A stretch of DNA of 64,000 nucleotides from Nitrosopumilus sp. GTDB lineage: Archaea; Thermoproteota; Nitrososphaeria; Nitrososphaerales; Nitrosopumilaceae. Below are positions 7,093 through 64,000 of this stretch, in pieces; the stretch's first letter is position 1; every line of letters begins with the position of its first letter. Where the stretch lies: positions 384,001 to 448,000 of the forward strand of contig OZ244651.1 of the NCBI GenBank assembly GCA_965218695.1. The letters are read 5' to 3'. The notes below the pieces were generated by a model. It ran no database searches, was not told the DNA's origin, and worked only from the letters and a program-made list of their open reading frames with translations. A program made the position numbers and the translations under genes.

Positions 7093-7405
7093 TACAGGAC
7101 ATATGTCAAAAACGTTATTCCAAGGAGAGCGGCATATTCTCAAGTAGTTAATTGACAAATTTTCAGATAAAATATGGTAGGAAAGGCTCCGGTGGATTTC
7201 GGTGATCAAGCCATTAGATCATATGAGTAATCGACCACTTTCAACATAACAAAAATACGCCGCAATAGATCCTATGATTAACCCCCCATCACATCGATAA
7301 ATTTAGATCAGGCACGATCGCGTTTCACATCAAATGCCAGACTCACCTGATCAGATCATACGCAAGTTAGAACAGGAAAACAAAAAGCTAAAAAAGATTC
7401 TAAAT

Positions 7406-7498
7406 CAGAAAGACAAAAAGCTGGAGCAGAAAGACAAAAAGCTGGAGCAGAAAGACAAAAAGCTGGAGCAGAAAGACAAAAAGCTGGAGCAGAAAGAC
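7406..7498 (+). repeat. 21-bp tandem repeat x4.4 (QKDKKLE heptad) in the transposase N-terminus
   Basis: CAGAAAGACAAAAAGCTGGAG repeated. Confidence 0.95.
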
Positions 7499-8376
7499 GA
7501 GGAGCTGAGCCTTGAGCGCAGCCTGTGGAAGCGCAGGGACGGCGCGTTGAGCAAGGATGCCGGCAAGAGTGAAATGCTGCACCGGATCGAGGTTTTTGAC
7601 GAAATAATCGGCAGCAAGACCAAGATTTACCGGGCCACGCTAAAAGACAAGGAAAAGTTCCAGTTCATGCTGGCGTATGCCAAGGAATACATGAAGCATT
7701 CTGGCCGGATGCCGCTGTTTCGCGACGACGACTCCAGAAGGTCCGATCCCGGAAACCGGTGCAAGCTGCACCTGAGGCACGCCCTGCTCATGGCGCTGAT
7801 GCACAAAAAGGACAACATCACCCAGGGCGTGCTTGGCGCAGTCTTCGGGATAGACCAGGCCGCCGTGTCGCGGTACCTCAAGGTGATCGACGCGATGCTG
7901 GAAGGGACGCTTCCCACGGCAGACAGCGTGTCAGGGGAGATATCTGCAGCCCCCACCAAGGAAGAGTTCAAGAAGATCGTGCCCGGGCCCGACGGGGGCG
8001 AGATATTCGCAGACGGCACGCACTGCCCCGTGCAGCGCCCGTCCGAAAGGACGGTCAGGCGCATGAAATACTCTGGCAAGAAAAAAAAGTTCACCATCTA
8101 TGTTAACCCTCCCCCGGACTTATCCAGTTTTTGCAACCAGCTTGTCACTTTGGGTATGTTTTTTGCCTTCTTAAGCATTACCTGCAAGCAGAATCCTGCC
8201 CGACCGGCAGAAAATACGGCTTTTTGCCCCGCGGTGTGACACGCATAATCCCTTCCGGGGGGTCTGGGGGGCTGGCCCCCCAGCATTCATGTAGAAACAT
8301 CCCATAGTTCCCATAATTTGTGCACAGCATCCGCTAGACTCGGCATTGCCTACTGGCACCACCACCGGTTCCACAC

Positions 8377-9495
8377 CTACTCGTCCTTCATGACTTGTCT
8401 GATCTTGGAGCGATACAGCTTTTCGTTTCTGTCCTCGTACAGGGTGTCTTCTGTCAGCATGTGCCAGATGATAGTCAGCATCTTGTTTGCCACGTGCGTT
8501 ATGGCGACGTGGTGCTTGTGCCTCTTCATGATGCGCGTGTAGTATTCCTTCACCCTTGCGTCATGGAGCACTGCAGCAAGCGCGCACTGGACCATGATCC
8601 AGTTGACCTTCCTGTTTGAGTCCTTTTTCATCCTGCCGTGGTATGACGTGTCGCCTGACTGGTGAAGCGTCGGGCACATGCCGGCCCAGGACACGAACTT
8701 TTTTGGGTTCCCAAACCGTTTGATGTCGTCGATCTCTGCTGCCAGCAACGCTGCAGAAAATACGTTCATCCCAGTCATGCTCAGCAGCAGCTTCGGGTAG
8801 TGGGTGTCGCGGACGTATCCCTTGATCTCGACTTCGGTCTTTTTTATCTCGTCGTTGCAGTGCCGTATCTGCGATATGCAGCCGTCCAGCACGAACCTGT
8901 CCCGAGAATTCTTCATGTCTGCCTCTTCAAGATACTTTAGGGCCTTTCCCCTCCAGATGTGGCGTCCTCCATCCTTTGGATTTATGTCGCATTTGTCTGT
9001 CAGCGTGTGCACAAAGTTGATCACTTTTGTCCGGTCCTGCACCAGGGTTATCTGGTACCTGAGGATCTGCTTCATTCCCCTGGATTCGGCCGAGCCTATG
9101 TGGCAGCTCGAAATCAAGTCGGCTCGCAGCAGGTGGGCAAGCATCCTTGCGTCTATGGTGTCGTTTTTTATGCTGGCCGACGAGATTGCCTTGATCTTGA
9201 ACGGATTGGCAAGCATCAGCGGGATTCCGGCAGATTCAAATGCATCAGCAGTCTTTATCCAGTGGTTTCCTGTGGATTCGCAGACTGCCCTGCACTGACC
9301 GTATGTGGCCTTTGCGTATGCGGCAAACTCTGATGAATCCCGGGACGTGTTGCTGTACGATGACTCTTCCAGGATTGTCCCTTCATGGCTCATCACGCAC
9401 GTCACGCATTTTCTCTTTCCTATGTCGATTCCAATACTCTTTTCTATTTCTTTCACCTCCTTTTTTTTGTGTGGCAGGCCGGAAGCTGCATCCAT
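8377..9495 (-). CDS. IS110-family DEDD recombinase; true start possibly ATA at 9447
   Basis: IGIDIGK, ESTGNHW, KNDTIDA, LHQSG, ANKMLTIIWHML; SD GGAGGTGA at 9460-9453. Confidence 0.95.
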   Translation of the reverse strand: MDAASGLPHKKKEVKEIEKSIGIDIGKRKCVTCVMSHEGTILEESSYSNTSRDSSEFAAYAKATYGQCRAVCESTGNHWIKTADAFESAGIPLMLANPFKIKAISSASIKNDTIDARMLAHLLRADLISSCHIGSAESRGMKQILRYQITLVQDRTKVINFVHTLTDKCDINPKDGGRHIWRGKALKYLEEADMKNSRDRFVLDGCISQIRHCNDEIKKTEVEIKGYVRDTHYPKLLLSMTGMNVFSAALLAAEIDDIKRFGNPKKFVSWAGMCPTLHQSGDTSYHGRMKKDSNRKVNWIMVQCALAAVLHDARVKEYYTRIMKRHKHHVAITHVANKMLTIIWHMLTEDTLYEDRNEKLYRSKIRQVMKDE

Positions 9496-9595
9496 CTATC
9501 AGGGCTCGAAGCCCAGTAACACAGCAGCTCGGATCGCCCCATTCAACAACTAGGTCTTTGTGACCAGGTGAATTTAGGGGTCAGCCCGCCACAGG
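9470..9595 (-). ncRNA. Predicted bridge RNA (target- and donor-binding loops) of IS110 #1
   Basis: Closing stem 9470-9479/9584-9593. Loop 1 holds plus-strand CAACAAC (9544-9550) and GGTGAA (9567-9572), matching target TTCAC-CA-ACAAC. Loop 2 holds CATCTAT (9493-9499) and AACACA (9518-9523), matching donor junction TGTATT-CA-TCTAT. Confidence 0.85.
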
Positions 9596-9597
9596 TA

Positions 9598-10851
9598 TAC
9601 CAAAAGTGAAAAGTTGATGCGATTGTCACATATTTTACCACATCTAAAGTTATACCAATTTCACGTCCCACAGTCAATGAAGATCAAGACGATGTTGAAA
9701 AGATACGCCGCTGAGACAGACTGCGATACCAAGGACCGCATGATGCTGATCATCAGAGTCAAACGTGATGGAATAACCATGAGGGATTCTGCAAAATCCC
9801 TGGGAAAGTCAGCCTCGTGGGGCTACAAGTGGCACGAGCGCTACCTGGAAGTCGGATTTGACAGGCTGGGAAACATGCCGCGCTCCGGCAGGCCGACCAA
9901 GGCGAGCAAGGCAGACATGAAGAAGATCAGAAAGGCCGCATGCAGGAAACCTGTCTGGACTGGCATGGAGATGCAGCAATACATCCAACAGAAGACCGGA
10001 GTGAAGTACGAACTCGGATATGTGCGCCAGATACTGCGCGGGTGGGGCTATTCCCAAAAGGTTCCCGTAGGAAAACATGCAAGAAGGGCGCCTGACGAGG
10101 AGATCAGGAAATTCCAAAAAGAGATGCCAGAGCTTATAAAAAAAAGAACAGTGAAGGAACAGTCGTAGCGATACAGGACGAGTCCATAGTAATCTCCGAT
10201 GCGCGGCCGCGAAGACGCGGCTACACCAGGAAGGGAATACGGGCGTTTTTCACGTACACCGGCTCACACTCCAAGACGATAATCCATGGACTAATCACCA
10301 CGGACGGCAGGGGCATGTTCCGGCAGTACGATGCGTTTACCAAGGACACCTTTGAGGACTTTCTAAGGCAGGCGATGTACAGGTTCAAGAAGATCTGCCT
10401 GATCATGGACAAGGCCTCCCAGCACAGGGCATCAAACATACGCAAACTGCTTGATGGCACAGACGGCCTGGAGATAATCTTCCTGCCAACTGCGACCCCG
10501 GACCTGAGCGCCATAGAGACGTACTGGAGGGATCTCAAACGGGCAGTGCTTGACGTGCCGTACACCAGCCTGAGCATGCTCCGCGAGGCGATCACCAGGT
10601 ACGCGAGGTACAAAAAACCAAATCTGGTAGTCGAGAATTTTCTGTACAGGGCCATCTAGAACGACATCAAACCACACCGGATCCACGCCGCCTAGCGTGT
10701 GCCATGCACGGCGCATCAGAGCATGCAATGTCTAATGTTCGGGGCGTCTTTTCTCGTCATTTGGGAATTCAACGCACCTCGTAATTTCCAGAGATGGATG
10801 TCGCATCAAAAATTTATGAGCGATTTTGATATGAATTTTTCATTGCTGGTA
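9598..10851 (+). mobile_element. IS630-family element (type C, 1254 bp) inserted in the IS110 left end
   Basis: TIRs TACCAAAAGTGAAAAGTT / AATTTTTCATTGCTGGTA; TA TSD 9596-9597 and 10852-10853; apparently identical copy at 61586-62839. Confidence 0.95.
9677..10659 (+). CDS. IS630 transposase in two frames joined by a probable programmed -1 frameshift
   Basis: orfA (HTH, RSGRP) and -1 frame (IQDES, MDKASQH, PDLSAIETYW) overlap at A8G 10138-10146; same in the second copy. Confidence 0.85.
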
Positions 10852-11771
10852 TAGTGGGTGGGTGGGGTTATCATGTATTCAACAACACCAACGTGTACGC
10901 CAACAAAAACGGGGTGATAATCGGCATATCCAAGAGCACCGTCGGGTCAGTCGGCGACATCACGCTTCTCAAGGAACGCCCCATGCCGTTTGGAAGATGG
11001 GAGGAGGCGATGCACGACCCGGATCTGCCCGAGGCACAACGGTGCCACGTCTTTGTCGACCGCGGCTACCAGGGGATCGAAAAACACCTGCCCGGCACGA
11101 CCCCGGAGATCCCGTACAAGAAGAGCAAGAAGGCGCCCCTGACGCCGGAGCAAAGGGAGCACAACCACAGGATCCACTCCGAGCGCGTGCTAGTCGAGCA
11201 CACCATAGGCAGGCTCAAGCGCTACGCGCGTCTTTCCGACCCGTACGACGGAACCGCGGCGCAGTTCAACCGGGAGTTCAACGTGATCACAGGGCTGGTG
11301 AACCTGGACCTTTTGTGGGACTACGTGCAAAAGGGCCCGCCGCCACCGGGCCGGTGGAGGATGCAGGTAGACTGGGACAAAGCCTGCTCCCGGGAACCTG
11401 TCAAGTAGAATTCAGGGCACATCGAGGTGCTACAGGACTGCGCACGCCATCTTGGATTTTGTAATAAATTAATTCGCCACGCACTCGGCATAGTTGGCAT
11501 TTAGTCGTATTTTTCTGATTTTATGGCCCAAACCGGCAAGATGGGAGGGATTACTCATGAGTTCTATTAGAATTTACCAGAATCGAAGCCATCCGGGCGC
11601 GCGTCGGCCTCTCGCTCCATGGCACGATGCACGGGCGCTGGTTATTAATTGACATTTAATCAGATTTAAAATACCGATCAGCTACTTTTGTAGATTAAAT
11701 CATTCGGAAAGATCATCGGACCGCATAATGACGGATTGTCTGTTCTATTCGAGAGTATTTTGTATCAGACT

Positions 11772-59951: not shown

Positions 59952-61070
59952 TCAGGATTCGGCGATGCGCTTTATTCTCTGGAATTTTCGTCTGACAAAA
60001 TCCCTGTCCTGGGTCCTGTACTCGGCGTCGTGTTCAAGCATCTCCCAGACCCATTCGAGCATCTGCCTGGCCACGGCAACCCTTGCCTTCATGGGCCCTA
60101 TGCGGGCTGCCAGTCTCTGGTAGCGTGCCCCTATCCGGGCATCGTGCCGGACTGCGACGAAGGCGGCCTCGACCATGGCGCGGCGCAGCCAGACAGAACC
60201 GCGCTTTGTGATGCCACCGGTCCTGACTGTCTCCCCGCTGTTGCGGTGTTTTGGCGCCAGGCCTGCATACGAGACCAGCTTTTCGGCGTTGGCGAACCTC
60301 TTGTGGTCGACTATTTCGGCAAGTATGGTTACTGCCGTGACGTATCCTATTCCGGGTATGGTCATGATCAGTCGTGCCCGCCTGTCGCTCATCGCAATCC
60401 CGGCTATCTTTTTTTCAAATTTTGACACCTGCTTTAGTATGGTGTCGATGATGGCTAGGTGCGACTGCACCGCCATGCAGTCAACCTCCCTCAGGGGCAC
60501 GTCCTGCAGCCACTCGATGCCCTGCTCCGTAAACAGCCCCCCTTTGGGCTGCTCGTGCGGGTATTTGGCCAGGATCGCGTGGATGCGGTTCTTGGGGCCT
60601 GAGGCGGACATCTTCATGTCCAGGCGGGTGCGGGTCAGTTCGCGCAGATCCCGCGCGGGCTTGTCGGCCACGAACGATTCGGGGATCATGTCCAGCCTGC
60701 ACAGGTCTGCCAGCTTTTCCGAGTCGGCCTTGTCGTTTTTGTACACGGTTTCGGTTATTATCTTCGTGTTGTGCGGGTGGGCCAGCAGGGTGTCGATGCC
60801 CGCATCCTCGAGCATGTCGTGCACGACTATCCAGTAGTTGGCCGTGGATTCGCAGACGGCCGTGGCCGGCACGTACCCTTCCTTGTGGATCATCTTGATG
60901 AATCCGGTTATTCCCCGAACGTTGTTGTCAAATTCAGTCTGCTTTAGTATGTCCTTGGTACTTCCCTTGATCGTTGTAACGCATTTCTTTTTGTGAACGT
61001 CTATTCCAACGTAATACGTGTTATCACCTCCTTTGCAGTGTATCGGACCCGACCAGCGGAAAACTCCCAT
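59952..61070 (-). CDS. IS110-family DEDD recombinase; true start possibly ACG at 61019
   Basis: VGIDVHK, ESTANYW, KNDKADS, IPGIG, RNSG, VAVARQML; SD GGAGGTGA at 61031-61024. Confidence 0.95.
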   Translation of the reverse strand: MGVFRWSGPIHCKGGDNTYYVGIDVHKKKCVTTIKGSTKDILKQTEFDNNVRGITGFIKMIHKEGYVPATAVCESTANYWIVVHDMLEDAGIDTLLAHPHNTKIITETVYKNDKADSEKLADLCRLDMIPESFVADKPARDLRELTRTRLDMKMSASGPKNRIHAILAKYPHEQPKGGLFTEQGIEWLQDVPLREVDCMAVQSHLAIIDTILKQVSKFEKKIAGIAMSDRRARLIMTIPGIGYVTAVTILAEIVDHKRFANAEKLVSYAGLAPKHRNSGETVRTGGITKRGSVWLRRAMVEAAFVAVRHDARIGARYQRLAARIGPMKARVAVARQMLEWVWEMLEHDAEYRTQDRDFVRRKFQRIKRIAES

Positions 61071-62853: not shown

Positions 62854-64000
62854 CCTATGTTAACCACCCCGGAGCATTTACCACGATAATCCCGCTATAT
62901 TTCCGGTCTGTGCCTGAGTTGCACGGTACATCATTTATAGCTGACGCTGGGCAGCATGATCAGGATGCAGGATCCGCCAGGTTCACTTCTGGCGCGCCCT
63001 TTTCATCTTGGCCAGCTTGCGTCTGTACAGTCTTTCGTTGTGTGACGAGTATATCGTCCTGGTATTGAGCATGTGCCATGCTATGGTGAGCATCTTGTTT
63101 GCCACCACCACTACGGCAGGCCCGTGCTTGTCTGCATGTCTCCTGCGTGCAGACTCGTATACTGCCGCCATCCTGTCATCATGCCGCACCGCGGTGTTTG
63201 CAGCCTCCATCATGGCCCAGTTGACAATTTTGTTGCGGTCAATCTTTTTTATCCTTCCAGTATACAGCTGGTTGCCGGACTGGTAGACTACGGGACACAT
63301 GCCTGCCCACGAGACCAGGTTTTTCGGGCTCTCAAACCTGGAGATATCCCCTATCTCTGCTGCAAGCAGCAGTGCGGTGTATGTTCCCAGACCGGTCAGG
63401 CTTGCAAGAATCTCTGCGTCCTCGTTTTGTGCCGCCTCCCTGTCAAGGCATTCGTCCATGACTGCTATCTCCTCGGTCAGGTTTCTCATCTGCCGGACGC
63501 ATTGCTGGAGCACCATCTCGTCATGTGCAGAGCCGAGGCCTGCGGATTCCAGCTGTTCTGTTGCCTTTGCAGAATACATATCAGTGGCCTCCACTGCCAC
63601 GTCATACCTGTCAAGCAGGGCGTGGACGCGGTTTATCACGCGCGTCCTGTCTTGGACGATCCTTATCCTCTGCCTGACCATCTGCCTTATCCCCCTGATG
63701 TTGGCAGGCGGCACGTAGCACTCGGGTATCATGTCCATCCTCAACACCTGTGCAATCTTCTCTGCATCCACCCTGTCTGTCTTTTTTCCTGTCTTTGTAA
63801 TTATGGCCATCTTGAACGTGTTGGCAAGCTTGATCTCTATTCCTGCACCCTCAAATGCGGCATATGTGATGTTCCACATGTTGCCCGTAGTCTCGCATGC
63901 CGCGCGGCATCCCCTGCGGGCGTACCTGCGTGCGGCCTTTTCTGCAAACTCCTTTGCGCTTGCTGCCGTGTTTGGGTACTGCCCTCGTTGGAGGACCTTC
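62854..64000 (-). mobile_element. IS110/IS1111-family element #3 (partial; left end outside the window)
   Basis: Right end CA-CCT-ATGTTAACC mirrors CA-TCT-ATGTTAACC of element #1. Confidence 0.88.
62983..64000 (-). CDS. IS110-family recombinase (N-terminus outside the window)
   Basis: ETTGNMW, KKTDRVDA, SWAGMCPVVYQSG, VANKMLTIAWHML. Confidence 0.93.
   Translation of the reverse strand, partial: KVLQRGQYPNTAASAKEFAEKAARRYARRGCRAACETTGNMWNITYAAFEGAGIEIKLANTFKMAIITKTGKKTDRVDAEKIAQVLRMDMIPECYVPPANIRGIRQMVRQRIRIVQDRTRVINRVHALLDRYDVAVEATDMYSAKATEQLESAGLGSAHDEMVLQQCVRQMRNLTEEIAVMDECLDREAAQNEDAEILASLTGLGTYTALLLAAEIGDISRFESPKNLVSWAGMCPVVYQSGNQLYTGRIKKIDRNKIVNWAMMEAANTAVRHDDRMAAVYESARRRHADKHGPAVVVVANKMLTIAWHMLNTRTIYSSHNERLYRRKLAKMKRARQK

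Follow-up and report, generated by a model that had tools for sequence, protein, structure and literature searches.

Examining a 64,000-nt stretch of a Nitrosopumilus genome (the window, meaning here the whole stretch analyzed; G000:C1:384001-448000), we found an IS110-family insertion sequence (IS) whose recombinase gene is directly preceded, on the same strand, by a compact two-arm RNA, and this RNA very probably guides that DEDD recombinase, which belongs to the IS110 superfamily, in an IS1111-like geometry. We directly observe the fold and its covariation, the covariation of guides with flanking DNA and with element ends, the core dinucleotide, simple insertion, the catalytic residues, and site fidelity. 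The original prediction, made from the sequence alone, had proposed a compact bispecific bridge RNA of about 125 to 155 nt for an archaeal IS110 recombinase, IS621 being its example of the class. The archaeal host is borne out by the Nitrosopumilus genome, and target and donor loops both covary, but the geometry is IS1111-like, with a strand order reverse to that of IS621, and the RNA, compact as proposed, has a core of 124 nt.

The RNA and its gene lie in the window as follows.

9470-9593, minus strand: predicted bridge RNA core, 124 nt; closing stem 9593-9582 / 9481-9470; 147 bits with covariance model R1.
9537-9580, minus strand: arm 1, predicted target-binding loop; 5' strand 9576-9566 UAAAUUCACCU pairs with top-strand core G plus right flank; hairpin 9565-9553; 3' strand 9552-9541 UAGUUGUUGAAU equals left flank GTTGT plus TG plus AAT.
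9483-9530, minus strand: arm 2, predicted donor-binding loop; 5' strand 9523-9515 UGUGUUACU pairs with left-end nt 1-6 (AATACA) with one G.T wobble; hairpin 9514-9502; 3' strand 9501-9490 UGAUAGAUGGAU equals right-end tip ATAGA plus TG.
8377-9456, minus strand: recombinase gene (DEDD_Tnp_IS110 and Transposase_20); likely GTG start at 9456-9454; the longest open reading frame (ORF) runs from an ATG at 9495, inside the RNA.

On the minus strand from 9593 to 9470, a 12-bp closing stem, UGUGGCGGGCUG / CGGCCUGCCACA, encloses two arms that each consist of a stem, an internal loop, and a hairpin: arm 1 reads CCCC-UAAAUUCACCU-(GGUC ACAAA GACC)-UAGUUGUUGAAU-GGGG and arm 2 reads GAGCUGC-UGUGUUACU-(GGGCU UCG AGCCC)-UGAUAGAUGGAU-GCAGCUU. 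The minimum-free-energy fold yields this two-arm architecture (-55.1 kcal/mol, z = -3.87, with 0 of 200 shuffles as stable), so that sequence and fold agree with the two-arm RNA and closing stem of the original prediction, apart from a U and a UA that it had left out where the loops begin or end. In alignment A1, made of 11 RNAs from the host genome, RNAalifold finds 34 pairs, 8 of them with compensatory changes, and covariance model R1 was built from this alignment. Among 41 homologues (39 distinct) aligned by the model, 91.2% of 1154 cells are paired and 27 of 31 pairs show compensatory changes, in an alignment that was fitted to R1 and is thereby biased in favor of the fold. None of 500 shuffles attains any of five fold-conservation measures, and partners slid by 1 to 3 columns pair in only 34 to 45% of cells. 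We rejected the opposite strand as the RNA: pairing there is 85.6%, against 91.2% on the recombinase strand, with 103 G.U cells, and this lower pairing indicates that the RNA would run in the recombinase direction. Of the 41 RNAs, 26 are followed on their own strand by a recombinase homologue, whose start lies at -26 to +102 nt relative to the RNA's end. Rfam gave no family for the RNA between 8000 and 11000, its sole match being a chance RsmY hit (E = 0.53) inside a nested IS630-family element. A loose genome-wide motif scan for ends and arms, which returned hundreds of chance matches, was replaced by blastn and the covariance model.

The loop strands of arm 1 follow the DNA on either side of each element. 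The 3' strand is laid out as left flank (5 nt), core (2 nt), and AAU, and the reverse complement of the 5' strand as A, core, and right flank (6 nt). With the left-end tip set independently of the guides, 5 nt upstream of the conserved ATG in the subterminal repeat, left guide and flank are identical at 110 of 140 positions (28 distinct pairs from 34 elements; shuffled mean 51, maximum 75), or at 90 of 115 with one pair per distinct guide (shuffled mean 39); right guide and flank are identical at 44 of 66 (11 distinct pairs; shuffled mean 20, maximum 41). The original prediction had called for a covariance model and a look at guide/target covariation, and with R1 built, guides do track flanks on either side (0 of 20,000 shuffles each), counts that overstate significance since related elements are not independent. 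The left-flank test omits 7 of the 41 RNAs, which lack the ATG-N-[ATC]-A-[AC] anchor (L028, L033, L051, L037, L039, L047, and L049a); L033, L039, L047, and L051 fit their flanks by eye. No right end was found within up to 3.5 kb for L027/L055, L042/L056, L043/L057, L032/L058, L036/L059, L046/L060, and L047/L061, and the contigs of L030, L034, L044, L045, and L051 end before it, so that neither group contributes right-flank data. In a later test set of eight elements from genomes G120, G167, G207, and G204, fetched after the rule was fixed, agreement was 27/30 on the left (6 elements with the anchor) and 21/30 on the right (5 elements with a repeat-backed right end). The core covaries as well: L044 (genome G046) has AG for TG in both flank and target loop, and L051, judged by eye, has AG in flank, target loop, and donor loop. 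A further candidate contact, the handshake-like AAU tail of the 3' strand, which equals the first 3 left-end nt in the main clade, was rejected, as covariation is not demonstrable (16/27, where shuffles average 14.9 and 5093 of 20,000 score as high); three divergent elements that agree at this position (ACU/ACT twice, AUU/ATT once) fell outside the anchor rule.

In the window copy, the left guide is perfect (GUUGU-UG versus GTTGT-TG), and the right guide UUCACC pairs with G+GTGAA over 6 nt. The original prediction that both arm-1 strands match the flanks therefore stands, except that the right match is 1 nt off the family register. A rival explanation does without any guide RNA: the region would be a structured 5' leader controlling recombinase translation, or a set of protein-binding repeats acting at the DNA level, and the flank matches would be left from element formation. 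As for a leader, the RNA does stop 14 nt short of the GGAGG/GTG start region and is not followed by a terminator. However, the loops change with each element's flanks while the stems stay paired, a leader or repeat gives no reason for loops to track sequence outside the element, and the protein family is experimentally established as RNA-guided, so we regard this explanation as highly improbable.

Arm 2 matches the element's own ends. As the original prediction had it, the arm fits the circle junction with one wobble: UGUGUU pairs with left-end nt 1-6, and AUAGA-UG equals right-end tip plus core. Among relatives, the reverse complement of the donor 5' strand agrees with left-end nt 1-6 at 85 of 114 positions (19 distinct pairs; shuffled mean 65, maximum 82; 0 of 20,000 shuffles) and tracks left-end changes (AATGCA/AACGCA, GAGACA/GAGACT, AAAGCA/AAAGCT, and ATAGTA/ATCGTA). 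The donor 3' strand is laid out as right-end tip (5 nt) and core. For 10 elements the right end could be located from the inverted-repeat motif alone, and in all 10 this strand agrees with the one variable tip base (7 with A, 3 with G); it also tracks the ATGAG tip of L040; right ends beyond these first 10 were found with the donor-loop key, making the 3'-strand agreement partly circular there. The donor-loop signal is thinner than the target-loop signal, and it could be asked whether arm 1 alone guides, as a seekRNA, with the protein recognizing the ends through the subterminal inverted repeats and arm 2 serving as a scaffold that binds protein and resembles the ends by descent, not by function. 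In keeping with that, strong conservation of arm 2 as well as of the ends makes covariation thin, compensatory changes occur in 3 of 6 pairs of the arm-2 basal stem, the arm-2 5' strand does not pair with the core (reverse complement AGT versus A-TG), and the inverted repeats are clear (13 to 16 of 18 identities). Yet the donor 5' strand follows left-end changes beyond the shuffled maximum, and the 3' strand follows both the A/G change at the right tip and the L040 tip, making guidance by arm 1 alone very unlikely in our judgment.

The protein encoded downstream belongs to the IS110 DEDD enzymes by both domain and catalytic-residue criteria. The minus-strand ORF 8377..9495 spans 372 codons with no stops and matches Pfam DEDD_Tnp_IS110 (3.4e-24, 85.8 bits) and Transposase_20 (1.4e-22, 80.3 bits), as well as NCBIfam NF033542, "IS110 family RNA-guided transposase" (226.9 bits, cut-off 140). 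With phmmer it matches IS621 (8wt6_A, E = 9.3e-13) and ISCro4 (9t56_A, E = 1.2e-10), and its D24, E73, D112, D115, and S280 align with the catalytic D11, E60, D102, D105, and S241 of IS621 (PMC11208158), so that 5 of 5 are kept. Translation probably starts at the GTG at 9456-9454, after GGAGG, rather than at the upstream ATG; in relatives such as L004 the ATG frame meets a stop.

The remaining parts of the locus define the element, its target, and a second insertion.

7334-8094, plus strand: 5' part of the interrupted host gene (IS5-like DDE_Tnp_4 transposase); Pfam HTH_Tnp_4 in ORF 7334..8239; frame resumes at 10882; 3'-most letters AAGTTCAC; right target flank in element orientation.
8095-8096, no strand: copy of the core dinucleotide where the right end meets its flank; plus-strand CA, hence TG in element orientation; the joint 8094 to 10880 has 2 letters fitting either side.
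8097-8376, minus strand: right end of the IS110-family element, 280-nt non-coding; terminal letters GGGTTAACATAGA; subterminal inverted repeat 8100-8115; conserved among 6 copies.
9598-10851, plus strand: nested IS630-family element, 1254 bp; Pfam HTH_32/33 and DDE_3; TA duplication 9596-9597 and 10852-10853; 3 nt upstream of the closing stem.
10854-10879, minus strand: left-end tip of the IS110-family element, displaced by the IS630; 26 nt, AATACATGATAACCCCACCCACCCAC in element orientation; subterminal inverted repeat 10864-10874.
10880-10881, no strand: copy of the core dinucleotide where the left end meets its flank; plus-strand CA.
10882-11408, plus strand: 3' part of the interrupted IS5-like transposase gene; Pfam DDE_Tnp_4 profile positions 32-158 of 158; first letters ACAACACC; left target flank in element orientation.

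On the plus strand, the element spans 8097 (start TCTATGTTAACCC) to 10879 (end ATCATGTATT) with CA at either side, and measures about 1.53 kb once the IS630 is subtracted. Its junctions read TTCAC-CA-TCTATG at 8090-8102 and TGTATT-CA-ACAAC at 10874-10886. The subterminal inverted repeats, offset from the left and right tips by 5 and 3 nt, respectively, are identical at 13 of 18 positions in the window copy; for L012 the figure is 16 of 18. Uninterrupted paralogous genes at C1:1638632 and C1:1806009 carry the empty site, AAGTTCACC/AACAATACC, with a single CA, and a second paralogous target type, AAATTCACC/AATAACACC, likewise with a single CA, occurs at C1:1020813 and C1:2369371. Contigs from 4 of 4 sequencing runs (2 studies) join 8094 to 10880, skipping 8095..10879, with 2 ambiguous letters; they also join 9595 to 10852, skipping 1256, with 2 ambiguous letters (TA), which is the IS630-free joint. 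These contigs were aligned at 90% likeness and may derive from paralogous genes and other copies, and those of the 4 runs demonstrate neither excision nor a circle junction. Together with the other empty sites, the paralogues and the two-letter ambiguous joint show that the insertion was simple, leaving the core at either side and duplicating nothing else. Both junctions lie at the places named in the original prediction, the single-core empty site that it reconstructed is found in paralogues and contig joints, and its core of CA rather than CT is correct for the plus strand.

The 280-nt right-end region is strongly conserved in 6 copies, and its predicted structure includes a UGGGGGGCCAGCCCCCCAG hairpin; an R1 scan of this end did not find a second RNA copy. 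An IS of about 1.2 kb with DDE_Tnp_1 is inserted at the same position of the right end, after CTGCTTGCAGG, in L002 and L003, which are of different subtypes. The host IS5-like gene contains, near its 5' end (window 7390-7500), about 5 tandem 21-nt repeats, AGAAAGACAAAAAGCTGGAGC, that encode a KDKKLEQ-like repeated stretch.

Several observations weigh against the guide RNA reading, in addition to the non-independence and partial circularity given above. No downstream recombinase is present in the sequence at hand for 15 of the 41 RNAs. Left matches are poor in L015, L036, L052, and L049b (2/5 each) and in L054 (0/5), most of them decayed copies; right flanks are unmatched in the relatives L031 (1/6) and L035 (0/6), and the right flank of L091, from the later set, matches at only 2/6. 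In the window copy itself, the right guide scores 1/6 in the family register and 5/6 when shifted by 1 nt. We do not take this shifted match to be noise, because the 10-nt loop segment concerned matches the paralogous target type AAATTCACC over 9 bases without a gap (GGTGAATTT), because a third copy with an identical left end sits in a paralogue with AATAAC, the left-flank sequence of that target type, and because a bacterial contig, L078, uses the same x/G/RT8 register. As for the RNAs without a recombinase, we rejected the idea that they are recombinase-less mini-elements: L020, the one checked, is a truncated copy with about 12 recombinase codons left beside an unrelated gene.

A last point against the guide RNA reading, as far as the window copy is concerned, is that the IS630 insertion may have silenced it. 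The IS630 separates the RNA from the left tip, and therefore any promoter in the tip is 1.26 kb away. It is a serious possibility, somewhat short of even, that the family is RNA-guided and the window copy is a fossil, its RNA and recombinase cut off from their promoter so that it would move, if at all, only with RNA and protein from another copy, which is compatible with the RNA being a guide. The two other copies of this subtype are damaged too: L002 carries the 1.2-kb DDE_Tnp_1 IS in its right-end non-coding region, and at C1:630374 a further IS630-like insertion interrupts arm 1. However, the window RNA, the 372-aa ORF, and the two termini are all intact and match L002 at 100% identity, which suggests recent activity, and an outward promoter in the IS630 end or read-through is possible. 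L002, the identical copy, lacks the IS630. The IS630 transposase is split into two ORFs, 9614-10168 (HTH domains) and 10315-10659 (DDE_3), and it may be frameshifted or use programmed frameshifting.

For a working element of this family, we infer transcription, binding of the RNA by the protein, a circle intermediate, and catalysis with strand exchange. Among listed sequencing runs, no RNA run contained 8098-9597, a result that bears neither way on expression. Transcription of the left end, in the same direction as the recombinase gene, would produce an RNA of some 124 to 128 nt, which would fold as a three-way junction of the 12-bp closing stem, the target-binding arm, and the donor-binding arm. 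As a speculation, the conserved ATG-N-TAA of the left repeat, about 20 to 27 nt before the closing stem, could double as a TATA-like box. The 5' loop strand of the target arm would pair with core plus right flank on the top strand over 6 to 8 nt. In the donor arm, the 3' loop strand AUAGA-UG would pair with right-end tip plus core on the bottom strand, and the 5' loop strand UGUGUU with the top strand at left-end nt 1-6, so that both donor strands together would read the RE-TG-LE circle junction. A recombinase tetramer (D24/E73/D112/D115, S280) would then exchange strands at the core, and insertion would leave no duplication beyond it.

The host genome contains 18 protein matches, with 18 left-end and 13 right-end high-scoring segment pairs by blastn. 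The original prediction had named copies at unrelated sites as evidence that would speak against it; instead, 3 copies with identical RNA share the same position in IS5-like genes, one of them in a diverged paralogue, and copies with other guides occupy other sites, each matching its own guides. Single-TG unoccupied sites were found for three other types, with 3, 10, and 20 exact matches; for the L003/L011 type, the empty site is GAGGTTGG-TG-CGTAATTC at C1:879141. The target of the L008 type, TTTGGTGATCTG, has 10 unoccupied occurrences (C1:1765722, 2268453, 619454, and 7 more), often within the longer repeat tggtaaatTTTGGTGATCTGatcacc, which suggests that this type targets a dispersed repeat. 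L012 (45% identical), which runs off the edge of the window at 63004-64000 (C1:447004-448065), lies inside an IS630 transposase gene and has its own R1-type RNA at C1:448101-448228; its site, ATCA-TG-CGGT, matches its guides and has 20 unoccupied copies in the genome. Since this IS110-type element sits in an IS630 gene, IS630 and IS110-type lineages insert into each other.

A second IS110-family lineage, 30% identical, is represented by L013 (window 59973-61010, minus strand), L014 (C1:2318815-2319852), and L017/L018 (C1:1720523-1721561). L013 and L014 share only about 25 nt upstream, but the 420 nt compared downstream are near-identical, with two differences by eye, which is the canonical IS1111 layout. 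Judging by this layout, their lineage probably carries a downstream bridge RNA; R1 yields no match in it.

Outside the host genome, R1 detects the RNA in 16 of 101 genomes of a draw among relatives (G000 included), namely in 10 of 60 of the same genus and in one genome each of five other families of the order, and in 6 of 151 genomes of an even draw from the phylum (G000 included), among them 4 of the 19 drawn from the same family and 1 of the 3 drawn from another. R1-like RNAs also occur on contigs of bacterial metagenome-assembled genomes (MAGs), downstream of 30%-identical recombinases, at 51 nt in L078 (E = 2e-4) and at 90 nt in L077 (E = 7e-3), with filters off.

L078, JAFGSC010000112.1, Atribacteria MAG, 1716-1859: R1-like RNA.
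L077, CAYVIU010000163.1, Planctomycetia MAG, 1483-1579: R1-like RNA.

Their loop strands fit their own left and right junctions by eye, for example, GTATT-TG versus GTAAT-TG, and AGGAA-TG-TTT at the right end. A 48%-identical recombinase, L076, is found on JAPPJI010000023.1, binned as Candidatus Kaiserbacteria, in a contig that begins inside the gene; the bin belongs to series RHO2, which is also the source of the Thaumarchaeota MAG match L087, and its placement could reflect mis-binning or transfer.

The class of bridge/seek RNA recombinases is young, its first description dating from 2024, and, to our knowledge, bench work on them has so far been confined to bacterial elements. This locus and its roughly 40 relatives provide a well-supported archaeal set with natural guide-to-target pairs and a short RNA, in a layout that mixes the two described groups: strand order and inverted repeats follow IS1111, whereas the RNA is positioned as in IS110. 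The set is useful for annotating insertion sequences and their targets in Nitrosopumilaceae, where the targets are transposase genes of other ISs and elements nest, and it bears on the debate over the archaeal history of IS110 recombinases and Nop5. It is a candidate compact system for engineering, archaea included, and leaves the known mechanism unchanged. More tentatively, ammonia-oxidizing archaea might harbor an active bridge-recombinase lineage in which an IS1111-type RNA module was relocated, leaving the right end for the left and giving a compact 124-nt three-way-junction RNA that would be co-transcribed with the recombinase and whose right guide works in two registers, x/TG/RT6 in most elements and x/G/RT8 in the window type and L078. 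We hold this to be possible, though doubtful; if it were true, the lineage would provide the first programmable recombinase that is both archaeal and mesophilic, and would amount to a natural experiment in varying the guide register and the place of the module.

Searching the literature, we found no paper naming a bridge RNA in Nitrosopumilus or, among the matches listed, in Thaumarchaeota, and papers on bridge RNA, IS110, and archaea, judged by title and abstract, included none concerned with an archaeal bridge RNA. According to the sections of the preprints at hand, one survey lists 662 archaeal IS110 recombinases (bioRxiv 10.1101/2024.06.21.599552) and another describes many bridge-RNA shapes, with 86 covariance models and 32,190 bridge RNAs (bioRxiv 10.64898/2026.10.21.760802). 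The supplements of such surveys (Durrant et al. tables; Evo-PIN preprint Fig. S12) may already contain the archaeal family.

Compared with IS621, the Nitrosopumilus RNA has the same pair of internal loops, a target loop followed by a donor loop, each reading both strands around a 2-nt core, and it likewise lies in the left end upstream of a recombinase with DEDD and Ser chemistry. The base beside the core in the 5' target strand also matches the right-end tip (A), in the manner of a handshake guide. In contrast, the archaeal RNA is 124 nt long with a closing stem around both arms, the core is TG instead of CT, and the protein match is distant (E = 9e-13). The strand order within the loops is reversed: the 5' side of the IS621 loop pairs with the bottom strand, as stated in the portion of the IS621 report consulted, which also gives the CT core (PMC11208160).

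Strand order instead links the RNA to the IS1111 group, in which, in the parts of the source covering these members, the guide matching the top strand lies 5' of the guide matching the bottom strand (Siddiquee et al. 2024, PMC11187229). In the Nitrosopumilus RNA, the 5' loop strand pairs with the top strand and the 3' loop strand with the bottom strand. The same source describes for this group a downstream non-coding region and subterminal inverted repeats of 7 to 17 bp with terminal extensions (PMC11187229), and examples with bridge/seek RNAs, as given in the sections consulted, are ISEc11, ISPa11, and ISKpn4 (PMC11187229; PMC11208160). Our elements share the subterminal inverted repeats with short terminal extensions, and the L078 and L077 bacterial RNAs, downstream of their recombinases, show the same guide-to-flank layout as the archaeal RNAs. 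Unlike the IS1111 RNA, which is downstream, the archaeal RNA lies before its recombinase gene in each of the 26 linked cases; the hosts also differ, being ammonia-oxidizing archaea, and the window subtype has the 280-nt conserved non-coding region at its right end.

Three known elements approach this arrangement. ISMtsp17, ISHvo10 (presumably haloarchaeal, judging by its name), and ISAcp5 are, like ours, IS1111-like with a non-coding region upstream or on both sides, a comparison made by description only. In the passages describing them, ISMtsp17 is an IS1111 relative with an upstream non-coding region, whereas ISHvo10 and ISAcp5 have long non-coding regions on both sides (PMC11187229); unlike for the archaeal RNA here, those passages report the non-coding position alone and give no RNA, fold, or guides. 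In its choice of target, our family resembles ISEc21, an IS110-family element that, according to the relevant section, inserts into conserved codons of the transposase gene of another IS family (PMC11187229): the window type targets an IS5-like transposase gene and the L012 type an IS630 gene. ISEc21 differs in having the IS110 guide order and a bacterial host. Placed by guide order and inverted repeats, the RNA described here is of the IS1111 type, but lies upstream of its gene in the Nitrosopumilus clade.

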